Shown: piece after piece, positions 5,579 to 57,814 of the stretch
How positions within the stretch are numbered: position 1 is the stretch's first letter
Layout: each line of letters starts with the position of its first letter
Origin: an uncultured Candidatus Saccharibacteria bacterium
Lineage (GTDB): Bacteria > Patescibacteriota > Minisyncoccia > Phycocordibacterales > UBA2100
Length of the DNA: 64,000 bases
Assembly: GCA_964623775.1 (NCBI GenBank)
Contig: CAZUVH010000002.1
Span: 110,454 to 174,453, forward strand
Direction of reading: 5' to 3'
Notes under the pieces: generated by a model
The model's input: the letters and a program-made list of their open reading frames with translations, nothing else
Databases searched by the model: none
What the model was told of the DNA's origin: nothing
Made by a program: the position numbers and the translations under genes

Positions 5579-6181
5579 TCACTTCAGCATACCCGAGTCA
5601 CTTGATGGCGGATCTTTGCGCATTTTACCCTTCAATCGTTCAATGCCGCGGTGGATACGGACGGAAACGACATTTTCGGTAACGCCGAGTGCTCTTGCTA
5701 TTTCTTTGGGAGAGAGTTCGTCCATATATCGCATGGTGATGACGACTCTGTAACTCTCGTCCAGTTCATCTAGAAGCTTGAGTGCTTCTTTGAGTGCGGG
5801 TGTATCGAGCGGTGCTCGTATTGATTCATCGCGCACCTCAAATCCATCGTCCTCCATCATCGCGTCGAGTGATGAGGATTTCTTGCGGCGCGAGCCGTCC
5901 ACGATTAAATTGTTGGCGACACGGTAAAGAAAGGCGCGGATGTAATCGATTTCTTTGCCTTCCGACATATAGAGCCATGTGCGACTAAATGTCTCTTGCG
6001 CAATATCTTTTGCTATTTCTCGATCACGCACTCGCAGGAGGCAGTGACGAAAGAGTGCGTCCGCGTGCTCGTCATGAGCCGCGAGGAATTCCGCCTCACG
6101 TTTTTTGATCCATCGCTCTTTTGGAGATGGTTTATGGATACCCATATACGTACAAACACGCTTACGCGCGCTTAGAGACAA
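5579..6181 (-). CDS. RNA polymerase sigma-70 family, ECF-type sigma factor
   Basis: Region-2 motifs (FRHCLLRVRDREIAKDIAQETF) and region-4 HTH (SPKEIARALGVTENVVSVRIHRGIERLK); true start may be the internal ATG at 6145. Confidence 0.8.
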   Translation of the reverse strand: MSLSARKRVCTYMGIHKPSPKERWIKKREAEFLAAHDEHADALFRHCLLRVRDREIAKDIAQETFSRTWLYMSEGKEIDYIRAFLYRVANNLIVDGSRRKKSSSLDAMMEDDGFEVRDESIRAPLDTPALKEALKLLDELDESYRVVITMRYMDELSPKEIARALGVTENVVSVRIHRGIERLKGKMRKDPPSSDSGMLK

Positions 6182-6196
6182 CTATACATTATCGGC

Positions 6197-7219
6197 CTAT
6201 GCTGTCTCCATTTCCCTGCCGTAGAGACCTTGCGATGCAAGGGAGTTCATCTGCATGCGGAAAAGAAAGGTCATCTGTGCATCGAGTACATTTTCCGGTT
6301 TGCCCGCCCACTTTTCGAGTGCGGCGTTTTGCAGCGCTCTGCTGTAAGAGAACGTGATGGGCCACGGATGCGGCCCGCGCTCAACTACAGCACTGAGATT
6401 GTCCGTCGCACTGATGTCATCCTGCCCCCCCGAGAGAAAAACGATGCCTGGAAGCGTGGGGGGGACTACTTTTTTGAAATGCGCAATCGTCGCTTCTGCG
6501 ATTTCTGCAGCCGTCTTTTTCTCTGTACTCTGTGCGCCTGGAATCACCATGTTGGATTTGAGGATCACCGCCTCGATCACAACTCCGGCCGACTTCAGCT
6601 CCTCAAAAAGCGCCGTCTGCATCCGCTCGGTAGCCTGCCTGCACTGATCCATTGTATGCGCACCGTCCATAAGTACTTCCGGCTCTACCATTGGCACGAT
6701 TCCGGCCTCCTGACAGGCCTTTGCGTACGCAGCGAGGTCCTTCGCGTTCTGACGCATATTGGCGTCGGTCGGCGTGCCGCTCGGGCTAATCGTGATGACT
6801 GCGCGCCATTTTGCAAAGACAGCTCCCATCTGCGCATATTCTTTCAATCTCAGAGCGAGACCCTCGCGACCCTTGGTAAGCTTCTCAATCAATGAGCCTG
6901 GCATGTCGATGGTGCCCTGATCTACTTTGATTCCCGGCATGATACCCACGTCTTTGAGAACCTTGAGAAATGGGGTACCGTCCTGTGCATTTTGTCGGAA
7001 TGTCTCATCGAAAAGAATGACGCCCGTGATGTAATCGCCGATGCCCGGCGTACGGAAAAACATCTCCCGGTACGCGCGACGATTATCCTCGGTGTTGGCT
7101 ATGTTGAATTTTGCGAATCGTTTTTCTATCGTATTGGCGCTTTCATCTGCTGCGAGAATACCTTTGCCGGGCGCAACGAGCGCGCGAGCAGTACTCTTCA
7201 GTTTTTCGACATCTGGCAT
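6197..7219 (-). CDS. fba: fructose-bisphosphate aldolase, class I (eukaryotic-type)
   Basis: GILAADES..., IPGIKVDQG, LSGGQ motifs; near full-length alignment by eye to class I aldolase. Confidence 0.9.
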   Translation of the reverse strand: MPDVEKLKSTARALVAPGKGILAADESANTIEKRFAKFNIANTEDNRRAYREMFFRTPGIGDYITGVILFDETFRQNAQDGTPFLKVLKDVGIMPGIKVDQGTIDMPGSLIEKLTKGREGLALRLKEYAQMGAVFAKWRAVITISPSGTPTDANMRQNAKDLAAYAKACQEAGIVPMVEPEVLMDGAHTMDQCRQATERMQTALFEELKSAGVVIEAVILKSNMVIPGAQSTEKKTAAEIAEATIAHFKKVVPPTLPGIVFLSGGQDDISATDNLSAVVERGPHPWPITFSYSRALQNAALEKWAGKPENVLDAQMTFLFRMQMNSLASQGLYGREMETA

Positions 7220-7251: not shown

Positions 7252-7824
7252 TCACTGATCCTCTGTGATTTGCGTATCCAAAAAACCGAGTGTGCTTTGC
7301 TGGTAGAGTGGCAGGGTAGCGATGATCCGGTGCGTAATTCCGAATTCCTTTGACTCATCGACGCTCATGATCTTGCCGCGCCGGAGCATTTGCGCCACTA
7401 CCTCAGTGTCATTGCCCGTCTCTCTGGCGATAACAAAAATGAGCTCCTGCAGCTCACGTTTGAATATCGCGATCGCCTCTTCGTGCGCATGCACAGGCGC
7501 GGTCGGGTCGAGAATTGTGTATTTGCCTTCGCGGAAAATAAATTGGCAGTTTTCGAGCGCCGTGCGCGTCTTTCCTGCGAGAAAGGTGGTCGCAGCTGCA
7601 GTATCCAATTCGCCAAAAGCGATCGTCTCCACCTCGATCGGGAGTGCCTTCAGGTATGTGTACATGTTGATGCCGGCGTCGATTTCGCCACTCATTCCAC
7701 CTGAGGCGATTAAAAAGCGAAGACTTTTTACAGGCTTGGAATACAAGTCCTCATTGATCGTGCGAATCGATTCTTGTACCACTTTACGCTCCAGTAGTCC
7801 GGTGAGTGCGTGCCAAATTTCCAT
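7252..7824 (-). CDS. ClpP-family (peptidase S14) homologue with apparently substituted catalytic Ser/His (ClpR-like)
   Basis: Collinear with ClpP over about 180 aa (e.g. ARETGNDTEVVAQMLRRGKIMSVDESKEFGITHRII vs ClpP C-terminus) but GxAASMG -> GELDTAA and MIHQP -> FIFREG. Confidence 0.55.
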   Translation of the reverse strand: MEIWHALTGLLERKVVQESIRTINEDLYSKPVKSLRFLIASGGMSGEIDAGINMYTYLKALPIEVETIAFGELDTAAATTFLAGKTRTALENCQFIFREGKYTILDPTAPVHAHEEAIAIFKRELQELIFVIARETGNDTEVVAQMLRRGKIMSVDESKEFGITHRIIATLPLYQQSTLGFLDTQITEDQ

Positions 7825-7911
7825 CCCACAACTATGGCTGCACCTCTGTAAAAAACAAATGAACTTTCGCCGTCCTAGGAAGGCCGGCCCCCGCCGACCT
7901 TCCCACCATCT

Positions 7912-8118
7912 CTATTCGTCTTCCAATTCCGAACGATTGCTCTGTCCACCTTTGCGTCCCGCCTCAGATGCGCGTTCAGGGTCATTTGCGAAGTTGCCGG
8001 GATTATTTTCCTTTCCCTGACTTTGTCCGCCCTTGCGGGCAATCTCGCGCTGCTGTTCCTCGTCCATCGCGGCGAATCCGCGGTTGCTGCTGCTCCGGTC
8101 TTTGTCTTTGTTTGCCAT
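7912..8118 (-). CDS. KGG-repeat general stress protein
   Basis: 68 aa with two RKGGQS / KGGQ repeats, highly charged; typical stress-induced KGG domain protein. Confidence 0.7.
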   Translation of the reverse strand: MANKDKDRSSSNRGFAAMDEEQQREIARKGGQSQGKENNPGNFANDPERASEAGRKGGQSNRSELEDE

Positions 8119-9784: not shown

Positions 9785-11026
9785 CTAGTCCCCCAATCCC
9801 ATAGCATCCCTCCTTCGTCGACGATGCCATGTGATACCAAATCGGTGCGCCTCGGCGTTGGCGAGGAGGATATCCTTTTCGTACGCTTCAATGGATCTTT
9901 TGTCACCGATGAGACGTTCAGGCTTATGGAATTCATTCTTCACAACACCAACGATCGGGATCATGAGTCCTGCTTCTTTCAGAATGCGCTCTGCCGCTCG
10001 CATTTGCCCCTTGCCGCCGTCGACGACGAACACTCGTGGTAGAGGCCATTCAGTATGATTGAGCCGACGATTCAATACCTCCTTCAGTGAAGCGACATCG
10101 TCGTTGGTCGCGCTTTGGATTTTGAATTTCCGGTACGCTGCCTTAAAAGCTTCGCCGCCGTGCACAACGGTCATTACGCCGACAGTCTCAACCCCCGACG
10201 TATGAGCAATATCGTACGCTTCGATGCGCACACCTCCCCCCGCTGATACATGACTCTCGTTTTTTATGAGAGACACATCTTTGATATGCGTAAGTGCGTC
10301 AATTTGTCGGCGCACGCGCGACGCATCCTCGAAGCGTTCCGCCTCGGCAAATTCTCGCATCTCATTTGTAAGTTGGCGCTTTAGTCCCTTGAAATTGCCC
10401 GAGAAAAGCTCCTTGATGTGAGCGACCACGCCCGCATATTCCCCCTTCGATATCTCTCCAGTGCATGTGCCCGGACAAAGCCCAATCTGCCGATTGAAAC
10501 ACGGCTTGCAGGTCTTATTTTTTCCCGTGCCACACGGTATGCACTTGGAATCACGGAACGGGAATATTTTTCGAACGATCTTGCACGCCTCTTGGAGGGC
10601 CATGCCGCCCGGAAATGGTCCGAACAGATATTTAATGTCTTTATCATTCCACTTCAAGAAAAGTTCGCGTCCACGCACGACGATCACACGCGGAAATTCT
10701 TCCCTGGTGATAACGAGATAATTGAAGCTTTTGTTGTCCTTTTCGTCGACATTGGCAGGCGGCTGATACTGCTTGATCAGATTGGCCTCGAGGATAAGCG
10801 CTTCAAGCACCGAATCAGTTTTCTCATAAGAAATAGTGTCGGCCTCCTCTACCATTTTCACAATCGCAGGCGAACGACCCTCCGCAAGATCATGAGAAAA
10901 ATAGCTGCGGACCCGATCGCGCAGACTCGCCGCCTTGCCGATGTAGAGGATCTTCTTCCCCTTCTTGAAGAAATAGACACCCGGCTCATCGGGAAGATTG
11001 TATTTTTTAATGTCTTCGCGTTGCAT
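9785..11026 (-). CDS. uvrC: excinuclease ABC subunit C, lacking the C-terminal (HhH)2 domain
   Basis: N-terminal GIY-YIG (GVYFF...ILYIGKA), UVR motif region, RNase H-like endonuclease domain ending AEAHRFGITWHRRRRR; ORF stops about 10 aa later, no HhH2. Confidence 0.85.
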   Translation of the reverse strand: MQREDIKKYNLPDEPGVYFFKKGKKILYIGKAASLRDRVRSYFSHDLAEGRSPAIVKMVEEADTISYEKTDSVLEALILEANLIKQYQPPANVDEKDNKSFNYLVITREEFPRVIVVRGRELFLKWNDKDIKYLFGPFPGGMALQEACKIVRKIFPFRDSKCIPCGTGKNKTCKPCFNRQIGLCPGTCTGEISKGEYAGVVAHIKELFSGNFKGLKRQLTNEMREFAEAERFEDASRVRRQIDALTHIKDVSLIKNESHVSAGGGVRIEAYDIAHTSGVETVGVMTVVHGGEAFKAAYRKFKIQSATNDDVASLKEVLNRRLNHTEWPLPRVFVVDGGKGQMRAAERILKEAGLMIPIVGVVKNEFHKPERLIGDKRSIEAYEKDILLANAEAHRFGITWHRRRRRDAMGLGD

Positions 11027-11096
11027 AGAGGTACTATACCTGCCTGAGACAAGCAGGCAAAAAAGAGAGCCGCGGCCAATATAGGCCGCGGCGACA

Positions 11097-11519
11097 TTAT
11101 TTCAGATACGACGTTACGCGTCTCGCAATGATTCCCTGTGAGCGCAGTGCGCGCATCTCTTCGGCCCGAATTAATTCGGCGCCTCGCTCAAGCGCAATCA
11201 AGGGAAGCCTCCCGCAGAGCGTATACTCAAGTACGTCCCGCTTGATTGAGATACACCCCTCTTCAGTCCAGCATGGTATCCCATTTTTTACGTATCTGCG
11301 TCGACCTTTCCAGTCTGCTCCGTAAGCATGGCGAAGCGCACCCTTCATGCCCTGTGCGCGATGCACCGCAATAAGAGTACGGTACTGCCACGATCGCGAG
11401 TAGACAGGATTCCTCATCCCGTAATAGACGGAGAGGACATCCATCATTTCACTCGTCTCAAAAAATCTACCCGCGGTGCGTTGTTTTTCTCGTAACGGAG
11501 GCGAAGGCGGAAAGCGCAT
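11097..11519 (-). CDS. hypothetical protein; weak resemblance to L,D-transpeptidase (YkuD) catalytic motif
   Basis: His ... EGCISIKRDV arrangement loosely resembles HG...SHGCIR; no signal peptide, so assignment is weak. Confidence 0.3.
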   Translation of the reverse strand: MRFPPSPPLREKQRTAGRFFETSEMMDVLSVYYGMRNPVYSRSWQYRTLIAVHRAQGMKGALRHAYGADWKGRRRYVKNGIPCWTEEGCISIKRDVLEYTLCGRLPLIALERGAELIRAEEMRALRSQGIIARRVTSYLK

Positions 11520-11605
11520 GTGCCCGTATCCTTTTCGAGGAGAACTCTAAAAACCTAGAGTATCACAAAAAGAAAACCGCAGCCAGGTGAGGCCGCGGTT
11601 CGATA

Positions 11606-12526
11606 TTATGTGACGTCTTGGAAATACTGTTTGAAGGGCTCAACCATCTCGAGCAGATCCTTGCCTGTGTACAACTTCTTCACGAGCGGCTGCCAAGGGA
11701 TATTCCACTTCGGATCATCCGGATGGGCAGGATTCACAAGTCTGAAGCGACACAGGGTGGGAGACCAGGAGCCATCTTCACGTTCGCAGGTGTATTGGAC
11801 AATGCGAGTATTGATCATCTGATTCTGCGTATCATGCGCAACGCCGTGTTTCTTTGCATACTCTTTTTCGGTGTTGAGAATCATCTGCGCGAGCTGACGC
11901 GGATGCCAACCCTCGATCATAAAGCGCTTGACCCACATCACTTCACCGTGATCAATCTCGAGCACGTCGCAACCGCGGTGCCTTTCCCAGATGTCGCGAA
12001 AATGTGCACTCAGACGGCCACCGGCCATATCCTGGAAGGTCTCGCCATTGCCCGCACGGAAAAAATACGACTGCTTGGCACGAAGCTCACGCTCTTCTTC
12101 GGTAAAAAGATGCAGACGTTCTTCGTACGAAAGTCTGTCGAGATCACCGTAATTTCGCTCGACGAGCCGCGGGTCAAGTTCCCAAAAAATGGGAAGTTTC
12201 GCATGCTCCGTCGCATGACCCGCCGTTTCGACTGCTCGCGCATATGTCGATACGATCGCGCGCACATTTTCAAACGGCTTCTCAAGACGCCGCTGCGCCA
12301 ACTCTCGGAAATCCTGGTCAATCCAGCTCCCCAACCGTCTTCCCTGCGTGACACCTTTCGGAGTGAGCCGTGCTTCCGATGTATGCGTATTGAGAATATC
12401 CCGCATAAATACAGGGTAGTTGTTGTTCTTGAGCTCGATACGCAGATTATTGCGATCGCTGTTGCCGTGCCTCGCGAAGGTAAGGGTGCGCGGCCCCTCA
12501 AAATAATCTCTACCTTTTTTTGACAT
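11606..12526 (-). CDS. histidine phosphatase superfamily protein (phosphoglycerate mutase-like)
   Basis: N-terminal LTFARHGNSDRN (RHG catalytic motif). Confidence 0.65.
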   Translation of the reverse strand: MSKKGRDYFEGPRTLTFARHGNSDRNNLRIELKNNNYPVFMRDILNTHTSEARLTPKGVTQGRRLGSWIDQDFRELAQRRLEKPFENVRAIVSTYARAVETAGHATEHAKLPIFWELDPRLVERNYGDLDRLSYEERLHLFTEEERELRAKQSYFFRAGNGETFQDMAGGRLSAHFRDIWERHRGCDVLEIDHGEVMWVKRFMIEGWHPRQLAQMILNTEKEYAKKHGVAHDTQNQMINTRIVQYTCEREDGSWSPTLCRFRLVNPAHPDDPKWNIPWQPLVKKLYTGKDLLEMVEPFKQYFQDVT

Positions 12527-12590
12527 CTCTACCTCTCTCTATCTTTTTCCACTCTATTCATAGACACCTCCGTGTCAACCTCGTGCACTC

Positions 12591-13025
12591 ATGTCGCTGG
12601 ACGAAAAGGGCGCGTGCCGTACAGTTAATACAGAAGAAAGGATACTCCCAATGCCTACGCTACGAGACGAAATTCTCGTAGTGTCACGCTACGAGAAAAG
12701 TGCACGATCCGGTTTTGATCTCTTGAGAAAGGTTCGGAAATTTCGAGCAAGATGCGGCGATAGACGTCCCGTGCTCGAAACCGAATTCGCAGGAACAATC
12801 TTGAGCATGACTGAGGAGGGCGTTTTTAACCCGTGGGTCAAGTTGCGCGCACCCAAGGGACTGGAGCAAGTGGAGGATATCGATGAATACGACCCTCTCT
12901 ACACGATATTTTTTCAGCTCACCTATCGAGGTCACCTCGAACATTTCGAAGCGGTTGATCGCATCGCCGAGGAACGAGGAGACTTTCGCAAGCTTTTAAG
13001 TAAGAAACCAGGCCAATCGAAATGA
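12591..13025 (+). CDS. hypothetical protein
   Basis: ORF-track entry; stop codon embedded in a strong intrinsic terminator; no recognisable domain. Confidence 0.4.
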   Translation: MSLDEKGACRTVNTEERILPMPTLRDEILVVSRYEKSARSGFDLLRKVRKFRARCGDRRPVLETEFAGTILSMTEEGVFNPWVKLRAPKGLEQVEDIDEYDPLYTIFFQLTYRGHLEHFEAVDRIAEERGDFRKLLSKKPGQSK

Positions 13026-13041
13026 TTGGCCTAATTTTTTT
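13011..13041 (+). terminator. intrinsic terminator (ggccaatc-gaaat-gattggcc + T9)
   Basis: Perfect 8-bp stem, 5-nt loop, followed by taattttttt. Confidence 0.65.
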
Positions 13042-13276
13042 AGCAAAATAAAAAAGCCCTCGTCCCTTTTAGGCTTCCGTAGGTCGACAACATCGTGGCG
13101 ACCATCCGGGAATCCGTATTAGGAGTCATCGGGCTGCATAATGATCAGACTTCGTGGGGGAATCGGAGGCCAACCCCCTGTTCCTCGGCTCGATCGCATC
13201 TCCTCCGAACAGCGCGACCTTGGAACACTGGAATTATATATTCCTTATAGGAACTTGTCAAGTGCCTTAAAACGCC

Positions 13277-15916
13277 TTATTTTTTGGCCTTTTTAAGGAC
13301 ACGCTTAAGGTAATATCCCGTATGTGAGCCGTCCGTCTTCGACACCTCTTCCGGCGTGCCTTTTGCGACGACCTTGCCGCCACCGACACCGCCCTCGGGA
13401 CCCATGTCGACAATGTAGTCCGCGCACTTGAGTACATCGAGATTGTGCTCGATCACGACGACCGTGTTTCCACGATCAACCAATTTCTGGAGAATATCGA
13501 TCAATTTCTGGACGTCATCGTAATGCAAACCGACAGTCGGCTCGTCGAGGAGATAGATTGTCTTGGTCATGAGCGGTCGATAGAGCTCCGACGCAATCTT
13601 TACACGCTGCGCCTCTCCACCCGAAAGCGTCGTCGCGCTCTGGCCGAGCTCCAAGTATGAGAGGCCCACGTCTACGAGCGTCTGCAAACGGTCGGAAATC
13701 GCGGGGATGTCCTCAAAGAATTTAAGCGCTTCCTCGACCGTCATTGTGAGTACGTCGTGAATGCTTTTTTTCTTATACTTCACTTCAAGTGTCTCTTTCA
13801 TAAATCGCTTACCGTTGCACACGTCACATGTCACGTAGACGGTCGGGAGAAAGTGCATTTCCACAGCGACAAGGCCATTGCCCTGACACGCCTCGCAGCG
13901 TCCGCCTTTTACATTGAACGAAAATCTGCCTGGGCCCCACCCACGCGCCTTGGATTCCTCGCTCATCGCGAAGAGATCGCGGATATGCGTCCACGCGCCG
14001 GTATACGTAGCTGGATTCGAGCGTGGAGTACGGCCGATCGGAGACTGATCGATGAGAATGGAGCGGCCGAGATATTCTGTACCGCTAAATTCTTTAACAT
14101 TGTAGATCTTGGCGGTACGGAAACGCTTATCGAATCGCGCGAGCAAATTGCGGTGAAGCATCTCATAAAGGAATGTTGATTTGCCCGATCCCGATACACC
14201 TGTGATCGCCACGAGCTTGGCGAGAGGGATGTCGATATTGATATTCTGTAGATTGAATTTGTTGCCACCGCGAATTCTGATCTTGCCGCGCTCTGCGGTG
14301 CGTCGCTTCTCCGGGACGGCAATGGCCGATTCTTCGCGCAAATACGAAAGCGTGCGCGAACCTGATTTATTGGTCTTTGCGGTGAGCAAATCTTCGAGCC
14401 ATCCTGAAGCGACGATGGTGCCACCATGTGTCCCGGCACCAGGTCCGATATCGACAATGTAATCGGATGCGTAGATCGTGTCTTCGTCATGTTCAACGAC
14501 GAGCACGGTATTCCCGAGGTCACGAAGGTGCTTCAGTGTCTCGATGAGTTTGTCGTTGTCACGTTGGTGAAGGCCGATCGTCGGCTCATCGAGCACGTAG
14601 AGCGCGCCGACGAGTCCGCTGCCAAGCTGCGATGCGAGACGGATACGCTGCGCCTCTCCCCCAGAGAGTGTATTCGCCTTACGATCGAGCGTGAGGTATT
14701 CGATACCGACGTTGAGCATGAATTGAAGGCGGCTCGTGATCTCCTTGACCACAACCTTCGAGATTTCCTTCTCCTTTTCGGTCAATTTGAGCTTGTTGAA
14801 GAAATCCATCGCGTCCTGGATGGAGAACGACGCGAGCTGCACGATGTTGGTGCCTACTGCAGGACCTTCATGACTTTCCGGCTGCTTTACAGAGCCGAGA
14901 AAAACATTGAGCGATTCGGGGCGAAGACGCGCACCATTACATACGGTGCACGGGTCATCACTGAAGAGGAAGAGGGTGCCGAGACCTTTGCATTCCGGAC
15001 ATGCACCATATGGAGAATTGAAAGAAAAGAGTCGCGGCTCGATCTCTGGGAATGAGAAGCCGTCGTATGCGCACATAAATTTTGCCGAGACGATATGTGA
15101 CTCTCCACTTGCATCGGTGATGCGCACGAGGCCCTCCGATTCATTGAGTGCCCGCTCTATCGCCTCGCTTGCGCGCTCGCGTGCGCCTTTTGGATCATCC
15201 TTGAATTCAGAGACAAAGATCTCGTCCACCACGACATCGATCGTGTGTTTAAAATTCTTTTGAAGCTCGATACGCGACCGCAATGATTTCTCCTCACCAT
15301 CGATGACAACTTTTTCAAAGCCCTTCGCGAGGAGGTCGTAGAGGAGCTGGTAGTATTCGCCCTTGCGTCCGACGACCACAGGCGATGAGATCCGGACCTT
15401 CGCGTCTGATACGCCTTTTGTGAGTTTTCCCGTTTCTCCCTTTTGTTGCTTGCCCGCCTTATCGACAATACGAAGAACGGACTCTAGAATTTCTTCATTT
15501 GAGAGTTTGCGTACTTCCCTACCGCAAATTGGGCAGTGTGCGTGGCCGATGCGCGCATAGAGCACTCGGAGATAGTCGTAAATTTCAGTGATTGTCGCCA
15601 CTGTCGAGCGAGGATTGTTGGAGCGACTCTTCTGATCGATTGAAATTGCAGGTGAAAGGCCAGTGATCTCGTCGACATCGGGCTTCTGCATTTGTCGCAA
15701 GAATTGACGGGCATATGCCGAGAGCGACTCGACGTACTTACGCTGTCCCTCCGCGAAAATGGTATCAAATGCCAAAGACGACTTCCCTGATCCGGAAAGC
15801 CCCGTAAAAACGACCATCTTATTACGCGGGATCTCAACACTCACGTCCTTCAAATTGTGCGTGCGAGCGCCTTTGACGATGATTTTATCCGTGTTGTTGT
15901 TTTTTTGTGGTGACAT
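13277..15916 (-). CDS. uvrA: excinuclease ABC subunit A
   Basis: 879 aa, two ABC ATPase modules ([18 protein letters not shown]), zinc-finger Cys clusters. Confidence 0.95.
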
Positions 15917-15984
15917 ACAAACAGATCCGACCCCCGCTTTGCGCTAGGGGTTGGGTAGGAGGACTATATCATGAGGATTCGATT

Positions 15985-16905
15985 TTATAGAATCGCCGCC
16001 TCTTCCTGGAGAGTGATGTTGAACATCTCTCTTACCGCGACTTTTATCCTTTCCGCAAGTTCTCGCACGTCCGTTGCCTTCGCGGAGCCCATATTCACAA
16101 TGTAATTCGGGTGTTGGAGGCTCGCGATCGCGCCACCCACCGTCGCACCCTTCATGCCCGCCTTTTCGATCAGCCATCCAGCTGGCACCCGACCTTCGCG
16201 TGACTTCACACCTTTTTCCTTTTCAAACATTTCTACGATTTCTGATGGCGCGACAGGGTTCATAAAAAAACTACCGGCCGCTTTCACATTTTGCAGGTGT
16301 CTTTTTTCTCGTTCAGCGATCGTCTCTTCAATTGACTTCGTTATTATCGCAGGTTCTAGTTGTGCAAGCTTAGCTTGCACAACAGTGATTATCCACTCAG
16401 AGTGATCTTTGAAAAAACTGTGGCGATAAGAAAAGTCACATGCGTCGTTCGTAAAATCCTGACTCTCCCCTGTTTCTGAATGTAACGCGCGAACTTTTGT
16501 TACAAAATCCTTGATCTCCGGTCCAAATGCTCCCGCGTTGCCACGCACTGCGCCGCCGATCGTACCGGGAATGCCGCTTAGCTTTTCCCACCCTCCGAGA
16601 CCATTTGTCGCCGCTGCGCGGATAAGTGCGAGAAGATTGCAACCCGCATCAGCGGAAAGCTCTGACCCCGCGAATGAAAAATCCTTGGAGACGAAATGGA
16701 TCACGAGACCCTTTATTCCCTCATCTGGAACAAGTGCGTTACTCCCCCCCGCAAGTACGACGTACGAAATCTGCTTCTCGCGCGCATAGCGAATGGCCTC
16801 GCGCAGCTCGTCCTCCGTCTTCACATCGACAAAATACTCGGCTTCGCCGCCGATCTGAAAGGTGGTCAACGGCGCAAGCGGTACAAATTGCTGAACCTCA
16901 ATCAT
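15985..16905 (-). CDS. murB: UDP-N-acetylenolpyruvoylglucosamine reductase
   Basis: FAD-binding domain and conserved MurB C-terminal region (GGAIASLQHPNYIVN). Confidence 0.9.
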   Translation of the reverse strand: MIEVQQFVPLAPLTTFQIGGEAEYFVDVKTEDELREAIRYAREKQISYVVLAGGSNALVPDEGIKGLVIHFVSKDFSFAGSELSADAGCNLLALIRAAATNGLGGWEKLSGIPGTIGGAVRGNAGAFGPEIKDFVTKVRALHSETGESQDFTNDACDFSYRHSFFKDHSEWIITVVQAKLAQLEPAIITKSIEETIAEREKRHLQNVKAAGSFFMNPVAPSEIVEMFEKEKGVKSREGRVPAGWLIEKAGMKGATVGGAIASLQHPNYIVNMGSAKATDVRELAERIKVAVREMFNITLQEEAAIL

Positions 16906-16921
16906 GTATGTATTTTACCTT

Positions 16922-18916
16922 TTATTTTGCCTTTTCTTCGAGTATGCGTATCTCGTCGCGCAAGATGGCTGCAGTTTCGAAATCGAGATCGTCGGCCGCC
17001 TGATGCATTTGGCGACGCTTTTCCTTGATCACCTTTTTCATATCTCCGCCGAACGCATTAGCATCGAATTCTGCGAGTTCCTTCACGACGCGCTTGCGCG
17101 ACTTTTCGATCTCGCCGGTAATGTCTTTGATGCGCTTGATGATCGTCTGCGGTGTAATTCCGTGCTTCTTGTTGTATGCGATCTGCACATCCCTGCGACG
17201 ATTTGTCTCGCCTATCGCCCGCTCCATTGAGCCCGTCATATTGTCGGCATAGAGAATGACACGACCGTTCACATTGCGTGCGGCACGGCCGATCGTCTGG
17301 ATGAGCGATGTTGTCGAGCGCAAGAATCCTTCTTTATCAGCATCGAGTATACCGATGAGTTCCACCTCTGGGAGATCAAGTCCTTCGCGAAGGAGGTTGA
17401 CCCCTACGAGCACGTCGAAGACTCCTTTGCGAAAATCGGTAAGTATCTCAATACGCTCGATCGTCGTAATGTCGCTGTGGATATAGCGCGACTTGATGTC
17501 TTTCTCCTTGAGAAAAGCACTGAGATCTTCTGCCATTTTCTTCGTAAGCACGGTGACCATCGTGCGCGCGCCTTTTTTGGTCGTGGCTTCCGCCTCGACG
17601 ATAAAATCCTTTACTTGTCCTCCATAATTGTCACCACTAATGATCGGTCGTACCTCAAGCTGCGGATCAACAAGCCCGGTCGGACGCACGACCATCTCTA
17701 TGGGCGGGCCACTGCGTTCAAGCTCATACTGCGATGGCGTAGCTGTCGTATAAATAGTTTGGCCGATCCGAGCTTGGAACTCCTCAAATTTGAGTGGGCG
17801 ATTGTCGAGAGCGCTCGGCAAGCGGAATCCGTGCTCGATAAGCGTCAGTTTGCGTGCGCGATCGCCCGCATACATTGCTCCAATCTGCGGTACCGTTACG
17901 TGCGACTCGTCGATCACTGTAAGAAAATCCTTGGGGAAATATGAGAGCAATGTATAGGGCGGTTCGCCGGCAGAGCGCCTATCGAAATGCCTCGAATAAT
18001 TCTCGATGCCGTTGCAGTAACCGAATTCTTTTATCATTGCTATGTCTTGCCTTGCACGACGCTTCAGGCGCTCGTGTTCAAGTATCTTCCCTTCGTCATT
18101 GAGTTTCTTGAGCTGAGCCTTCAGCTCCGCTTCAATGTCCGCCACAGCCGCGTCCTGCACATCCTTTGGGGTTACGTACTGCCTTGCGGGAAAGATAAAT
18201 ATCGAATCGTGCTTGTTCACAATCTCGCGCGTGATGGGATCGAGCTCCTCGATCTTCGCAATCTTGCCGCCCGTAAGATCGACACGATACAGTATGCGCT
18301 CGTTGGCCGGCATGATCTCGACTTTAGCGCCGAGTGCACGAAAAGTGCCCGGCGAAAGGTCACCTGCGACACGTTCAAAATAAATCCCGACGAGCTTTCG
18401 AGTAAGGTCGGCACGGGTCATAGGCGAACCTTTTACAAGCTTCAGGTTCACCTTTTCATATTCGATCGGACTTCCCAATCCATAAATGCATGAAACCGAT
18501 GCGACCACGATCACGTCCTTACGCGTGAGGAGCGATTGTGTGGTGGCATGACGCAGGCGCTCGATGTCTTCGTTGACCATCGCCTCCTTCTCGATATAAG
18601 TATCGGATACCGGTACGTATGCCTCCGGCTGGTAGTAGTCGTAGTACGAGACGAAATAATGCACCGCAGCATCGGGGAAAAATTCTCGGTACTCCGACGC
18701 AAGCTGTGCAGCAAGAGTTTTGTTGTGGGCGATGACGAGGGTCGGACGCTGCACCTTTTCGATAATATTGGCAATGGTAAAGGTCTTGCCCGAACCGGTA
18801 ACGCCGAGCAGCGTCTGATCACACTTACCCTCCTTAAGCCCTTTTACGAGTGCATCAATAGCCCTGGGCTGGTCACCCTCCGGCTTGTATTCTGACTTGA
18901 GTTTGAATAAGGCCAT
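16922..18916 (-). CDS. uvrB: excinuclease ABC subunit B
   Basis: 664 aa; helicase motifs (GVTGSGKTF), C-terminal UVR domain (AADDLDFETAAILRDEIRILE). Confidence 0.95.
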   Translation of the reverse strand: MALFKLKSEYKPEGDQPRAIDALVKGLKEGKCDQTLLGVTGSGKTFTIANIIEKVQRPTLVIAHNKTLAAQLASEYREFFPDAAVHYFVSYYDYYQPEAYVPVSDTYIEKEAMVNEDIERLRHATTQSLLTRKDVIVVASVSCIYGLGSPIEYEKVNLKLVKGSPMTRADLTRKLVGIYFERVAGDLSPGTFRALGAKVEIMPANERILYRVDLTGGKIAKIEELDPITREIVNKHDSIFIFPARQYVTPKDVQDAAVADIEAELKAQLKKLNDEGKILEHERLKRRARQDIAMIKEFGYCNGIENYSRHFDRRSAGEPPYTLLSYFPKDFLTVIDESHVTVPQIGAMYAGDRARKLTLIEHGFRLPSALDNRPLKFEEFQARIGQTIYTTATPSQYELERSGPPIEMVVRPTGLVDPQLEVRPIISGDNYGGQVKDFIVEAEATTKKGARTMVTVLTKKMAEDLSAFLKEKDIKSRYIHSDITTIERIEILTDFRKGVFDVLVGVNLLREGLDLPEVELIGILDADKEGFLRSTTSLIQTIGRAARNVNGRVILYADNMTGSMERAIGETNRRRDVQIAYNKKHGITPQTIIKRIKDITGEIEKSRKRVVKELAEFDANAFGGDMKKVIKEKRRQMHQAADDLDFETAAILRDEIRILEEKAK

Positions 18917-40878: not shown

Positions 40879-43563
40879 ATGTCATCACAAACGTACAAAG
40901 CAGTGACTTCCTTAATCCTCCTCGCGAGCCTCTGGTCGCAGCTCGTTGTATTCCCTTTCGTGTATGCCGACGAAGTGCCTGTCGATACTCCCCAATCGAC
41001 AACTGCCCCTGAGGAGCCCGCATCTCCCTCCGTCACCTCAGAAAGCGGGGGTGAATCGTCGGAGAGTGCGACAAATACGCAAACGCATGAAGAGCAATCA
41101 TCCTCGAGCTCAGAGGCCAGCGAGTCCAACACTTCATCGTCACACTCCGTAGAAGCAACCATTTCGGAAAGTGAGGAGCACGACAACACAGATGTCCACG
41201 CGACCATTACTGGTGCGCTCGACATGGGAGAAACGGGATCTTCCACCGGGACTTTGGTAGACGACTTCCTTTCGGATATTCCTCTGTCGTCATCGACCGT
41301 TATGGAATCAATTTCGGACATCGCGAGCACGACTGTAAACGGTTTTCTCGGACTTGATTTTGTTTCCGGCTCGAGCTCGGCGACGACCTCGGGAGAGACC
41401 GAAAACGCATCTTCGACCTCGGGGACAGGTTCTGGATCTGGTAATCCTCCGGCGAGCTGCCCGGCATCGAGTGGCCCCTCCACGTCGACGAGCACGACTC
41501 CACAGATCTCAAATCCGACCATCCGCTCAGGTTCTGCGACCGTCCTCGCCAACGTCCTCAACCTCCTCAACACGACCTTTATCAATTCACCTGGCGGCAT
41601 TCTCTTTTCCAACTTTACCGACACCGCACCGACCATCGATTTGCGCGACGCATCGCTCCTCACCAGCTGCGATGAATCTATCTGCAACGGACAAGAGGGA
41701 TTGGAGGTCAATATCGTGGGAGACGCAACGATCGACAATGATCTCATACTCGACGCATCGAGCGGTCGCAATCTTGTCTCGGAGGGAGGCGCGGCGACGA
41801 GCAGCATCGAGACGGGCGACGCGATCGCGGGCTTGAATCTCGTCAACATAGCCAATACGACCTTCATTAATTCGCAGTACCTGATCGTCACACTGAACGC
41901 ATTCAGCGGGGTAAATGGCGACATCGTGTTTCCGAGTCTTCTCAATTTCTTTGCCTCAGGCGGCGACTCGTCACTCGCGAGCGGGTCAACGATCTCGAAT
42001 GCCGCGACGGTCCACAATGACGTCGCCGCTGCAGCCGACTCCGGGAGCAACACGACAGACGGCAGTGATATGTCGGTCATCTCGACCGGCACAGCCGATG
42101 CGCACACCAACGTCTTCAACCAAATCAATTCCATCCTGCCCGATAGTCAGATCTCAATCCTTTTCAGAATTTCAGGCACATGGAATGGCCAGATATTCGG
42201 CATGCCTTCCAACGTCTCCCAAGTACGCGGACCAGATGGGAGCGTCTATATCTTCGGCAATCCTGAAGAACAGGGGCACATCGACACACCCACTCCCCTT
42301 TTGAACAGCACGACGACAGCAGAGATCAACAACAACGTACTTCTTGACGCGCTCTCCGGCCAAAACGCGATCGAGAACGCCTCAACATCAGTGATTTCCA
42401 CAGGCAACGCAATCGCTTCGGCAAATATCGTCAACATCGCGAATCAAAACGTAATCGGTCGCAATTGGATTCTCGCCATCATCGACATTTTTGGCGATTT
42501 CACCGGCAATATCGCATTCGGCCGCCCTGATCTATGGGTCGGCGATCAAGTGGAGGCACCCGGTTTCGTACAAAACGGCAGCACGCTTACCTACAAAATC
42601 ACCGTCATCAACAACGGCGACTCTCCTGCAAACAACGTCATCGTGAGAGAATCCCCCGCACTTTCTCATCTCGATATTCTCGGCATGTCTCTCCCACAAG
42701 ATCCCTGTGTCACCGACGGAATCGCCTGGAATCTCGGGACACTGCTACCAGGAAATGCGGTCGAAATTACCTATACGGCAAAGGTAAAAAATACATCTCC
42801 AGGCGACCGTATCACCAACTCAACGACGGCGGCAGCGACGGAAACTGACAATAATACGGAAGACAATACCGATGGGACGACTGTGACCGCCACGGTGGTC
42901 GTGAGCGGTGGAGGTGGTGGCGGAGGTTCATGCTGCACCAACGCAGGCTCCGCATCATCAGGAGGCGGTATAATCTCGACCTCGACGCTCATGGTGGAGC
43001 GCCTTACAGCCAACATGACGCTTGAGGGGACGACGACAGCCTCGCAGCGCATTGTCGTCAAAAACACATCAAACTCCCCGATCAACAATGTTGTTTTCCA
43101 CGATTACCTACGTGATCCAACCACTCATCTCGTCCACGAGGAGCGATGGAATCTCGACACAATCGCGGCACACGAGGAAGTTACGATCCAGTATTCAATC
43201 GTGTTTGAGCCGGGGGCGATGAGCGGCACATATCGATTGAGTACGGTACTTGAAGGCAAAAATTACCCGACGACAATAGCGGGTAACGGAACCATAGTAC
43301 TCAAGGCGACACCGCAATTGCTCGCCGTCAGCGCAACGGAGATCCCGAGCGTGCGCGTCATTAATAGAGGCGCCGTACAAGACGGACCTATCCTCGTGAA
43401 AGCCACGAGCACGCTCCCGAAAATACCTCAGACTGCCGCCGTCGCCGCAGCGGATTCAGGAATAAGTATGAAATTCGTATATCTCATACTCTTCCTCCTG
43501 CTCTTTGCGGCAAGTTATGGAGCGTTGCGCGTACTCAATCCGGAGAAGGAGTCGGGCCGATAA
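40879..43563 (+). CDS. large secreted surface protein with DUF11 repeats and a C-terminal membrane anchor
   Basis: Signal peptide, acidic Ser-rich region, three copies of sTGnAiA.aNivNiaNt.fI motif, two DUF11-like repeats (LTYKITVINNGDSPANNVIV...), C-terminal IPQTA + hydrophobic helix + charged tail. Confidence 0.7.
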   Translation: MSSQTYKAVTSLILLASLWSQLVVFPFVYADEVPVDTPQSTTAPEEPASPSVTSESGGESSESATNTQTHEEQSSSSSEASESNTSSSHSVEATISESEEHDNTDVHATITGALDMGETGSSTGTLVDDFLSDIPLSSSTVMESISDIASTTVNGFLGLDFVSGSSSATTSGETENASSTSGTGSGSGNPPASCPASSGPSTSTSTTPQISNPTIRSGSATVLANVLNLLNTTFINSPGGILFSNFTDTAPTIDLRDASLLTSCDESICNGQEGLEVNIVGDATIDNDLILDASSGRNLVSEGGAATSSIETGDAIAGLNLVNIANTTFINSQYLIVTLNAFSGVNGDIVFPSLLNFFASGGDSSLASGSTISNAATVHNDVAAAADSGSNTTDGSDMSVISTGTADAHTNVFNQINSILPDSQISILFRISGTWNGQIFGMPSNVSQVRGPDGSVYIFGNPEEQGHIDTPTPLLNSTTTAEINNNVLLDALSGQNAIENASTSVISTGNAIASANIVNIANQNVIGRNWILAIIDIFGDFTGNIAFGRPDLWVGDQVEAPGFVQNGSTLTYKITVINNGDSPANNVIVRESPALSHLDILGMSLPQDPCVTDGIAWNLGTLLPGNAVEITYTAKVKNTSPGDRITNSTTAAATETDNNTEDNTDGTTVTATVVVSGGGGGGGSCCTNAGSASSGGGIISTSTLMVERLTANMTLEGTTTASQRIVVKNTSNSPINNVVFHDYLRDPTTHLVHEERWNLDTIAAHEEVTIQYSIVFEPGAMSGTYRLSTVLEGKNYPTTIAGNGTIVLKATPQLLAVSATEIPSVRVINRGAVQDGPILVKATSTLPKIPQTAAVAAADSGISMKFVYLILFLLLFAASYGALRVLNPEKESGR

Positions 43564-56785: not shown

Positions 56786-57814
56786 TCAGGATAACCAATC
56801 TTTCCAGTTCGAGCGCGCTCTGCCGAAACTTTTCTCGCGAACCTTGTCGAATTTGGCGGAAAGTTCCGCCGCATCCCTCGGCCGGTTGAGGACGTTGTAT
56901 ACGACGAGTGATTTGATGAATTCACACATCGCGTCCGGCACATTGCTCGGCACTTGCTTCAGCCGTACCGCATCAATCTTTCCCGTCAGCGCATAGATCA
57001 TACACATACCGAGACTGTAGAGATCGGATTCGGGTACGAGCGTCTTACCCTCGATCTGTTCCGGTGGCGAGAAGATCTCCGTATAACCCTTGCTGCCGGT
57101 ATCGGCCGTCGGCTTTACCGACGAGAGTCCGAAATCGACGAGTTGTGCAATATGTTTCTCCGGCTGGAGAATGATGTTTTGCGGCTTCAAGTCCCCGTGC
57201 AAGATACCGTGACGATGGAGCCAGCCGAGTGTGTTGAGAACTCGATCAGCTATGGATGCCACGATCTCGGGGTCCCGCTTACCGTGTTTTTCGACGGCCT
57301 GTTCGAGTGTTGGGCCTTCCACCCAACTCATCACGAGCGCGAGTGCGCCATTGTCGAGCTCAATCACATCTCTCATGATTGGCAGCCCGTAGTGGCTGAG
57401 ATTCCAGATGGATTTCGCCTCTTGCTTGAGGATCTCTTCCGCAACGGGAGAGATCTCAGAACAGATCTTGACGCATGAAAGCTCGTCCAGCAGCTGATGC
57501 TGGGCTTTGTACGTCACTCCGAATCCTCCTTGCGCCACTTTGGCGATCTTGCGATAGGGACCGATCATGCCGCTTGAGTTCGACTTCGTTTTCCGATATT
57601 CATCGTATTCGCGACGCGACTTTGGATTGGCGATGATCTCATACGCTTCTGCTATCCGCTTCACATTCGATTCGGTCGCACCCGCGATGCGTGGGGCGTG
57701 AATTTTCAGAAGCGCCTTGTGAGCCACCTCAATGATCTCAATCTGGGACCTTGGATGCACCTGGAGCACCTTATAGAGATCCATATCGTACGCTGACGGA
57801 AAGGCATGGGACAT
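56786..57814 (-). CDS. Hanks-type Ser/Thr protein kinase with N-terminal degenerate J-domain
   Basis: N-terminus DLYKVLQV...KIHAPRIAG...YEIIANPKSRREYDEY matches J-domain helices with HPD replaced by HAPR; kinase motifs GGFGVTYKA, VKI, HGDLKPQNIIL, DFGLS, SPPE. Confidence 0.85.
   Translation of the reverse strand: MSHAFPSAYDMDLYKVLQVHPRSQIEIIEVAHKALLKIHAPRIAGATESNVKRIAEAYEIIANPKSRREYDEYRKTKSNSSGMIGPYRKIAKVAQGGFGVTYKAQHQLLDELSCVKICSEISPVAEEILKQEAKSIWNLSHYGLPIMRDVIELDNGALALVMSWVEGPTLEQAVEKHGKRDPEIVASIADRVLNTLGWLHRHGILHGDLKPQNIILQPEKHIAQLVDFGLSSVKPTADTGSKGYTEIFSPPEQIEGKTLVPESDLYSLGMCMIYALTGKIDAVRLKQVPSNVPDAMCEFIKSLVVYNVLNRPRDAAELSAKFDKVREKSFGRARSNWKDWLS

Follow-up and report, generated by a model that had tools for sequence, protein, structure and literature searches.

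A ClpP-fold protein with a replaced catalytic triad and a conserved C-terminal PhiGF tail in a clade of Candidate Phyla Radiation bacteria

We analyzed a 64,000-nucleotide stretch of DNA (the window) from an assembly recorded as an uncultured Candidatus Saccharibacteria bacterium (GCA_964623775.1, contig CAZUVH010000002.1, positions 110,454 to 174,453). The minus strand of this stretch carries, at positions 7252 to 7824 with the stop codon included, a gene for a 190-residue protein with the predicted fold of ClpP, the proteolytic subunit of ATP-dependent Clp proteases. All three residues of the Ser-His-Asp catalytic triad are replaced in this protein. It belongs to a clade of related proteins from the Candidate Phyla Radiation (CPR) in which the catalytic Ser is lost, and its fold is followed by a short tail with a hydrophobic residue-Gly-Phe (PhiGF) tripeptide.

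The gene and its predicted fold

The gene was identified as an open reading frame (ORF) and assigned with Pfam, AlphaFold2 and Foldseek. Its 190-residue product matches the CLP_protease family (PF00574) over residues 30-169 with E = 9.4e-14 and 52.1 bits, against a cut-off of 20.2, and enters the profile only at position 44 of 182. Eight ClpP-family models of NCBIfam were touched at 15-50 bits each, where the curated cut-offs are 228-361, so the protein falls short of the level set for ClpP; the top score was 50.5 bits against a cut-off of 228, and TIGR00493 gave 33.4 against 308.6. An AlphaFold2 monomer model built from 83 relatives has a predicted local distance difference test score (pLDDT) of 88.9, and Foldseek superposes this model on approximately 50 ClpP chains with template modeling (TM) scores of 0.75-0.80. 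As modeled, the product of ORF 7252-7824 shows a ClpP fold. The identical protein is encoded on three independent contigs.

The ClpP-fold core comprises residues 1-170 (positions 7315 to 7824, minus strand), as delimited by alignment and by the secondary structure of the AlphaFold2 model. It opens with an MEIW sequence that is found throughout the clade, and M1, E2 and W4 are invariant across 83 clade sequences. In a MAFFT alignment, Met1 pairs with Phe31 of the E. coli ClpP precursor and eight further residues are deleted. Therefore, the protein lacks the N-terminal axial loop that gates the ClpP pore and contacts the ATPase. The original prediction, a model's reading of the DNA alone, held that the protein aligns with ClpP across the whole fold; this needs correction, as the N-terminal loop is missing and coverage of the fold is incomplete.

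A two-residue insertion, Met44-Ser45, lies in the Gly-rich loop ASGG-xx-GE of this protein and its nearest relatives (residues 43-46; positions 7687-7698, minus strand). In ClpP, the equivalent of this loop is the SPGG oxyanion-loop region. Most clade members (about 90%; 73-75 of 83 sequences) lack the insertion. A 232-residue antisense ORF runs opposite the gene (7322-8020, plus strand), and similar antisense ORFs are present in 15 related loci. It is most likely a shadow ORF kept by conservation of the sense gene rather than a gene of its own.

Active-site residues

The triad positions were placed by HMMER pairwise alignment to solved ClpPs, by MAFFT alignment with E. coli and B. subtilis ClpP and by hmmalign, and all three concur. 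All three alignments pair G71-E-L-D-T75-A-A with the GxAASMG motif that contains the catalytic Ser, and F95-I-F-R98-E-G with the MIHQP motif that contains the catalytic His. Thr75 thus occupies the position of the nucleophile within Asp74-Thr75 (7600 to 7605, minus strand), and its codon reads agt at 7600-7602, the reverse complement of ACT. The position of the His is taken by Arg98, the first residue of Arg98-Glu99-Gly100-Lys101-Tyr102 (7519 to 7533, minus strand), with gcg at 7531-7533 and CGC as its reverse complement. Gly150 (7375 to 7377, minus strand) stands in the place of the catalytic Asp, which is Asp185 of E. coli ClpP in precursor numbering. The Ser-His-Asp triad is therefore wholly replaced by Thr75, Arg98 and Gly150. 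It had been predicted that GELDTAA and FIFREG carry substitutions of the catalytic Ser and His, and both the alignments and the codons bear this out. The same prediction had left room for a rigorous alignment to restore Ser, His and Asp; none of the three residues came back, and the loss of the third is an addition to what had been noticed.

The top sequence match among solved structures is 9UXT, ClpP1 of Pseudomonas plecoglossicida (PpClpP1; HMMER, E = 1.1e-8). PpClpP1 is an N-terminally truncated protein of 183 residues with a Ser73-His96-Pro151 arrangement (PMC12900304). It forms a homotetradecamer with a 42.7-Å pore, has approximately 13-fold weaker activity than its canonical paralogue, does not bind ClpX and assembles into a stable heterotetradecamer with the canonical ClpP2 (PMC12900304). 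Its Ser and His are "absolutely indispensable", because the S73A and H96A substitutions abolish activity, whereas the third residue of the triad is dispensable (PMC12900304). In the HMMER alignment, T75 of our protein falls on S73, R98 falls on H96, and Gly150 corresponds to the residue named Pro151 (Pro150 when counted on the 9uxt chain). The pairing of T75 and R98 with two indispensable residues is good evidence that the protein cannot act as a serine peptidase.

The two proteins are alike in being short, in the N-terminal truncation that leaves them without axial loops, in the non-Asp residue at the third triad position and in a locus that lies apart from clpX. PpClpP1 also has an acidic residue immediately before the nucleophile position (E-S, compared to D-T here). 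However, it keeps Ser73 and His96, where our protein has Thr and Arg, is a weak but real peptidase and has no LPLxQQ..PhiGF tail, and the two are only about 24% identical. Canonical ClpP (MEROPS S14; TIGR00493) has the same fold (TM of about 0.8) and belongs to the same Pfam family, but the protein differs from it in lacking the Ser-His-Asp triad, the axial loop and an adjacent clpX, and its NCBIfam scores are far below the cut-offs.

A clade of close relatives without the catalytic serine

We collected 85 close relatives with 38-100% identity, all from metagenome-assembled genomes (MAGs), and aligned 83 sequences of the clade. Named relatives carry the labels Candidatus Paceibacterota, Kaiserbacteria or Parcubacteria, and several third-party assemblies are labeled "Saccharibacteria". 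Nine loci from third-party (TPA) MAGs (L002, L003, L006, L007, L009, L010, L013, L017 and L018) are titled "uncultured Candidatus Saccharibacteria bacterium" despite a gene of the Kaiserbacteria/Paceibacterota type, and these titles are probably taxonomic mislabels.

The nucleophile column of the 85 relatives contains Ala in 38, Val in 33, Thr in 10, Ile in 3 and Ser in 1. The single Ser belongs to P0085, a Ser-intact outlier with 38% identity. The His column is divided between His (43) and Arg (42), and the Asp column holds Ser in 75 and Gly in 5, with two gaps that stem from truncated sequences. Residues beside the old active site are more uniform. D74 is found in 83/83 clade members and was carried over from the D-S motif of active relatives; E99 is likewise invariant and likewise inherited from forms with intact Ser and His. 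Position 101 is basic in the clade (Arg in 79/83, Lys in our protein), compared to Thr in the intact relatives, and Y102, near the former His, is kept in 81/83 members. With few exceptions, positions 75 and 98 co-vary, such that Val75 or Thr75 occurs with Arg98, and Ala75 or Ile75 with His98. This co-variation may reflect the packing of a filled-in cleft.

These counts bear on whether the protein could be an active hydrolase that uses Thr75 in place of Ser, with Arg98 or another residue as the base. Thr serves as the nucleophile in other hydrolase families, and D74 and E99 beside the site are invariant. However, these two residues are old, having been inherited from ancestors with intact Ser and His, and Thr occurs in only 10 of the 85 relatives, while sister lineages under equal constraint have Val, Ala or Ile. 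Because none of those three residues can be a nucleophile, the suggestion of the original prediction that Thr75 is a new nucleophile fails at a position that is not conserved. Moreover, Arg replaces the general-base His in exactly the sequences that bear Thr. We therefore regard a Thr-dependent hydrolase as very improbable.

Descent from short CPR ClpP-like proteins

We searched 1.84 billion representative proteins with a profile and obtained 5,983 relatives, of which 23 reached E <= 1e-30. The nearest proteins outside the clade are about 180 residues long, start with the same MEIWYTLTG-type sequence and keep both G-x-[VI]-D-S-A-A and F-x-x-H-E-G. A word-index search seeded with one such intact protein found 90 like it; those with names come from Doudnabacteria, Roizmanbacteria, Taylorbacteria and the "Patescibacteria group". 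The nearest relatives of our protein are short CPR proteins of this kind with intact Ser and His (P0086, P0090 from Amesbacteria, P0267 from Doudnabacteria, P0308 from Roizmanbacteria and P0324 from Taylorbacteria), which are 36-50% identical to it. Common to them and our protein are an N-terminus of the MEIWYTLTG type, a similar length, the motifs G-x-[VI]-D-x-A-A and F-x-x-x-E-G, H114 and an LP at the end of the fold. Unlike our protein, they keep Ser75 and His98 (50/50), and their chains stop a few residues past LP, with no PhiGF tripeptide (0/97). The traits of the short family that we find in our protein are its 190-residue length, the missing axial loop, the acidic D74 before the nucleophile position and a non-Asp third position, while the family's catalytic Ser and His are replaced by T75 and R98. 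According to hmmalign, no member of the short family has Asp at the third triad position; Gly or Ser is found there across the family.

In a balanced sample, Ser and His were both present in 50/50 intact relatives, and Ser was present in 0/41 clade members. Bootstrap support for separating the Ser-less clade from all others is 200/200 in a neighbor-joining analysis. With more distant short forms that bear Ser and His as the root, the clade nests inside the intact group on a long stem. Together, these results indicate that the catalytic Ser was lost once, in the ancestor of a Kaiserbacteria-type clade. At sixteen positions, the clade has a fixed residue that differs from the intact relatives: K30, P31, A40, G51, F97, R101, R123, E124, N138, D139, A144, M146, M153, Q175, G180 and F181. 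The ancestor would have been a short (about 175-185 residues), N-terminally truncated ClpP-like Ser/His peptidase of a type widespread in CPR bacteria (Patescibacteria). On the stem of the one Kaiserbacteria/Paceibacterota clade, its catalytic Ser would have been exchanged for Ala, Val, Thr or Ile, and the His would have changed to Arg afterwards in part of the clade, with our protein representing a Thr/Arg/Gly type.

The intact short forms are found in housekeeping neighborhoods. One lies in the order secY-[gene]-adk-map at the end of a ribosomal protein operon (locus L023, 4541-7873), and another directly follows dnaK in the order grpE-dnaK-[gene]...dnaJ (locus L026, 2876-6534). Further intact short forms sit among metabolic or peptidase genes. 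These surroundings suggest a general role in proteostasis for the short form in CPR bacteria, and its conversion to a non-catalytic protein in the Kaiserbacteria-type clade.

Two other origins were considered and rejected. ClpR is the inactive ClpP homologue of cyanobacteria, plastids and apicoplasts, and orthology to it is not supported, because the clade, itself supported at 200/200, branches among the short Ser/His-intact CPR proteins (in a tree that holds no ClpR sequences). The one solved ClpR, 4GM2 of P. falciparum, is absent from the top 60 listed of 106 PDB sequence matches and ranks 47th with Foldseek, which makes it a more distant match than canonical ClpPs. An origin in phages or defense systems was likewise set aside: a PHROG search with the protein gave only marginal matches (E >= 3.9e-4), PADLOC gave no match, and no relative was found on IMG/VR viral contigs.

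Purifying selection

Across the 83 clade sequences, 17 columns are invariant and 52 are nearly invariant. Between our gene and the two orthologues for which DNA is available, the nonsynonymous divergence (dN) is 0.105-0.122 and synonymous sites are saturated (proportion of synonymous differences, pS, 0.74-0.80). The adjacent aldolase gene has a dN of 0.104, close to that of the ClpP-like gene. Mean protein distances are 0.42 within the clade, 0.75 among the intact relatives and 1.15 between the two groups, a pattern that points to rapid change along the stem and tight constraint thereafter. Strong purifying selection acts on the clade, and its members are not relics.

Loss of all three triad residues would also be expected of a decaying pseudogene or functionless remnant, but we give this explanation next to no chance. 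The ORF is intact in 83 lineages with the conserved columns described above, dN is as low as that of a neighboring glycolytic enzyme although synonymous sites are saturated, and the clade has gained a new invariant motif.

The C-terminal PhiGF tail

The gained motif is a clade-specific tail that follows the fold. In our protein, it reads L171-P-L-Y-Q-Q-S-T-L179-G180-F181 (7282 to 7314, minus strand), with the LGF tripeptide encoded at 7282-7290. All full-length clade members (82/82) have L-P-[LF]-x-x-Q after the fold, followed by two to four residues and [FLIMV]-G-F. FGF is the commonest form of the tripeptide (52), followed by LGF (13, our protein among them), IGF (12), VGF (4) and MGF (1), and the residues beyond it vary in length and sequence among clade members. 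The tails of Ser-intact relatives were scored only past the fold, which excludes a fold-internal "FGLVHEI" helix; they have a median length of 7 residues, and a PhiGF-type tripeptide is absent from all of them (97/97). The tail has low pLDDT values in the AlphaFold2 monomer model, as expected of a short linear motif.

Work on Clp proteases has shown that (L/I/V)-G-(F/L) loops of Clp-ATPases insert into hydrophobic pockets between ClpP subunits (PMC8745299), and that the C-terminus of ClpP lies atop this LGF pocket, as does the C-terminal extension of the human protein (PMC12852852). The [FLIMV]-G-F of the clade fits the docking signature of the IGF, LGF and VGF loops of ClpX, ClpA and ClpC, and the tail leaves the fold at the C-terminus over the LGF pocket, as the human extension does. 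Two differences should be noted. Here the tripeptide, whose docking is a prediction, sits on the ClpP-fold protein itself, unlike the loops of Clp-ATPases; and the commonest form in the clade, FGF (52/82), is not a classical variant of the Clp-ATPase motif. At a distance of 8-9 residues from the end of the fold, PhiGF could be within reach of a pocket, whether on the same ring or on a partner ring. On these grounds, the tail may dock into a ClpP-type hydrophobic pocket.

A probable non-catalytic ring protein

We consider it probable that the protein is a non-catalytic ClpP-type ring component that has been selected for binding, scaffolding or regulation, with the PhiGF tail as a gained element. 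We infer that such a protein would assemble, like PpClpP1, into rings of seven subunits or into a tetradecamer whose pore is wide and ungated, and that it would not hydrolyze peptide bonds. Ring assembly without hydrolysis would leave binding or scaffolding as the selected function. The tail would start where the C-terminus of ClpP sits, on the apical face, and present its PhiGF as Clp-ATPases do. It would then probably dock either on its own ring, as a self-capping or stabilizing element, or on a partner ring of the ClpP type, with a ClpR-like or cap-like regulatory role.

Four considerations weigh against this interpretation. First, polar residues are conserved at the old active site (D74, E99, R101 and Y102), so a different chemistry is possible. 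Second, the positions that correspond to the hydrophobic pocket (H-pocket) of E. coli ClpP are only partly hydrophobic: Y60 and F82 of the mature protein, which we take to be pocket residues, correspond to Arg/Lys36 and Ala60, so that a PhiGF peptide may not fit into the pocket of the protein itself. Third, the conserved PhiGF could instead serve an inter-ring contact or the binding of an unrelated partner. Fourth, no partner gene is conserved beside the ClpP-like gene.

With regard to a different chemistry, the former cleft could have been re-purposed to bind or convert a non-peptide ligand through D74, E99, R101 and Y102. The fold of the ClpP/crotonase superfamily supports diverse chemistry and non-peptide ligands. 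The T101R change is fixed in the clade, and the other three residues are invariant or, in the case of Y102, present in 81/83 members. However, no crotonase-type match by sequence or structure ranks above the ClpPs, the central positions 75 and 98 vary within the clade, and the genes have no metabolic context. We judge a re-purposed cleft to be improbable.

A regulatory subunit resembling ClpR was the other suggestion of the original prediction. The protein would form mixed rings, or ring-on-ring assemblies, with a catalytically active ClpP paralogue from another locus of the genome, and would tune that protease in the manner of ClpR in cyanobacteria and plastids or of PpClpP1 with PpClpP2. ClpR and our clade are alike in having the ClpP fold, in the loss of catalytic residues and in being conserved; they are of independent origin, however, since our clade arose inside the CPR short-form family. 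In ClpR the N-terminal region is present, and the protein is known only from mixed complexes that also contain active ClpP and a Clp-ATPase. The heterotetradecamer formed by PpClpP1, the closest solved relative, with ClpP2 (PMC12900304) argues for a subunit of this kind, as does the possibility that the PhiGF tail docks on a partner ring. Among single-cell genomes of Patescibacteria, one set has ClpP (K01358) annotated at approximately 1.2 copies per genome (PMC12361377), although this count may represent the short form itself. By contrast, tblastn searches for ClpP and ClpX homologues found neither a second ClpP-fold gene nor a ClpX gene across 401 kb of sequence from the window together with 20 related loci, and a genome scan found no second locus in any of 20 assemblies. 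What stands of the suggestion is an inactive or altered protein with all three triad residues replaced; ClpR itself serves as a functional analogy and is not an orthologue. We regard a ClpR-like subunit of a mixed complex as possible but doubtful.

In a bolder version of the main interpretation, the protein would be the only ClpP-fold protein of its lineage. It would have given up proteolysis and acquired at its own C-terminus a PhiGF docking peptide of the kind that AAA+ unfoldases usually contribute. The rings would plug their own hydrophobic pockets or the pockets of a partner ring, to produce either a self-capped, ATPase-independent cage or a cap or inhibitor of ClpP that mimics an unfoldase. 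We hold this more specific proposal to be unlikely, but it would represent a new use of the ClpP scaffold in minimal CPR cells.

Both inactive ClpP paralogues, such as ClpR, and short truncated forms, such as PpClpP1, are already known. Literature searches on ClpP in Parcubacteria and other CPR bacteria and on ClpP pseudoproteases found no account of this clade, in which truncation, loss of the catalytic Ser and His and an invariant PhiGF tail are joined. Public records name proteins of the clade "ATP-dependent Clp protease proteolytic subunit". This name is almost certainly wrong for the clade, and it would distort inferences about proteostasis in Kaiserbacteria and Paceibacterota genomes. 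The clade offers a natural case of the passage from protease to pseudo-enzyme, in which the nucleophile was lost once, constraint then became as strong as that on a glycolytic enzyme and a PhiGF tail was gained. That tail is a concrete, testable motif for the capping or regulation of ClpP-type rings without an ATPase. If complete genomes hold no other ClpP or Clp-ATPase, these would be minimal cells that have no Clp proteolysis and have kept the scaffold.

Genomic surroundings

The original prediction described the gene as an orphan with no adjacent clpX or clpA. This is supported within the DNA covered: no Clp partner was found within 10 kb of the gene in 21 loci, and tblastn found none in the window. 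Pfam scans of 30 of the larger ORFs of the window revealed no Clp-type AAA+ unfoldase.

The upstream neighbor on the same strand (7912 to 8118, minus strand) encodes a 68-residue stress-type protein with KGG repeats (PF10685, E = 3e-19), and its functional tie to the ClpP-like gene is putative. A KGG gene also adjoins the ClpP-like gene in loci L021 (294-802, two copies), L028 (401-604) and L015 (9744-9950), and thus only in the subclade of our protein and in L015, whose ClpP-like member is just 59% identical to ours. This adjacency hints at co-regulation with a stress response. Downstream, a class I fructose-bisphosphate aldolase gene identified by Pfam (6197 to 7219, minus strand) lies 32 bp away and provides context only; no terminator-like site was detected between it and the ClpP-like gene. 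Beyond the aldolase gene, Pfam identifies a sigma factor of the extracytoplasmic function (ECF) type (5579-6181, minus strand). Promoter, terminator and Rfam scans around the gene returned a tRNA-Ala as the only find.

The KGG, aldolase and sigma factor order is kept in orthologues with 84-85% identity and lost in more distant clade members. The commonest neighbor in the clade is a convergent Sua5/YrdC-type gene downstream, putatively recognized from its sequence in 14 of 20 loci, and other loci have ABC transporter, TsaD-like, MraZ/RsmH-like or LexA-like genes. A conserved operon partner was rejected: the neighbors in the 20 loci include no plausible functional partner.

Genes for DNA repair are clustered on the minus strand at 9785-18916, with uvrC at 9785-11026, uvrA at 13277-15916 and uvrB at 16922-18916, and murB (15985-16905) separates uvrA from uvrB. 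The ClpP-like gene of other clade genomes has nearby either a DNA glycosylase-like gene or a pair of LexA-like and Y-family polymerase-like genes (putative assignments read from sequence). The proximity of repair genes may be coincidental. Two further proteins of the window stand out. A 342-residue protein (56786-57814, minus strand) is an unusual fusion of an N-terminal DnaJ (J) domain and a Ser/Thr protein kinase domain. An 894-residue protein with a DUF11 repeat domain (40879-43563, plus strand), which is overlapped by a 425-residue ORF on the opposite strand, is probably a surface protein.

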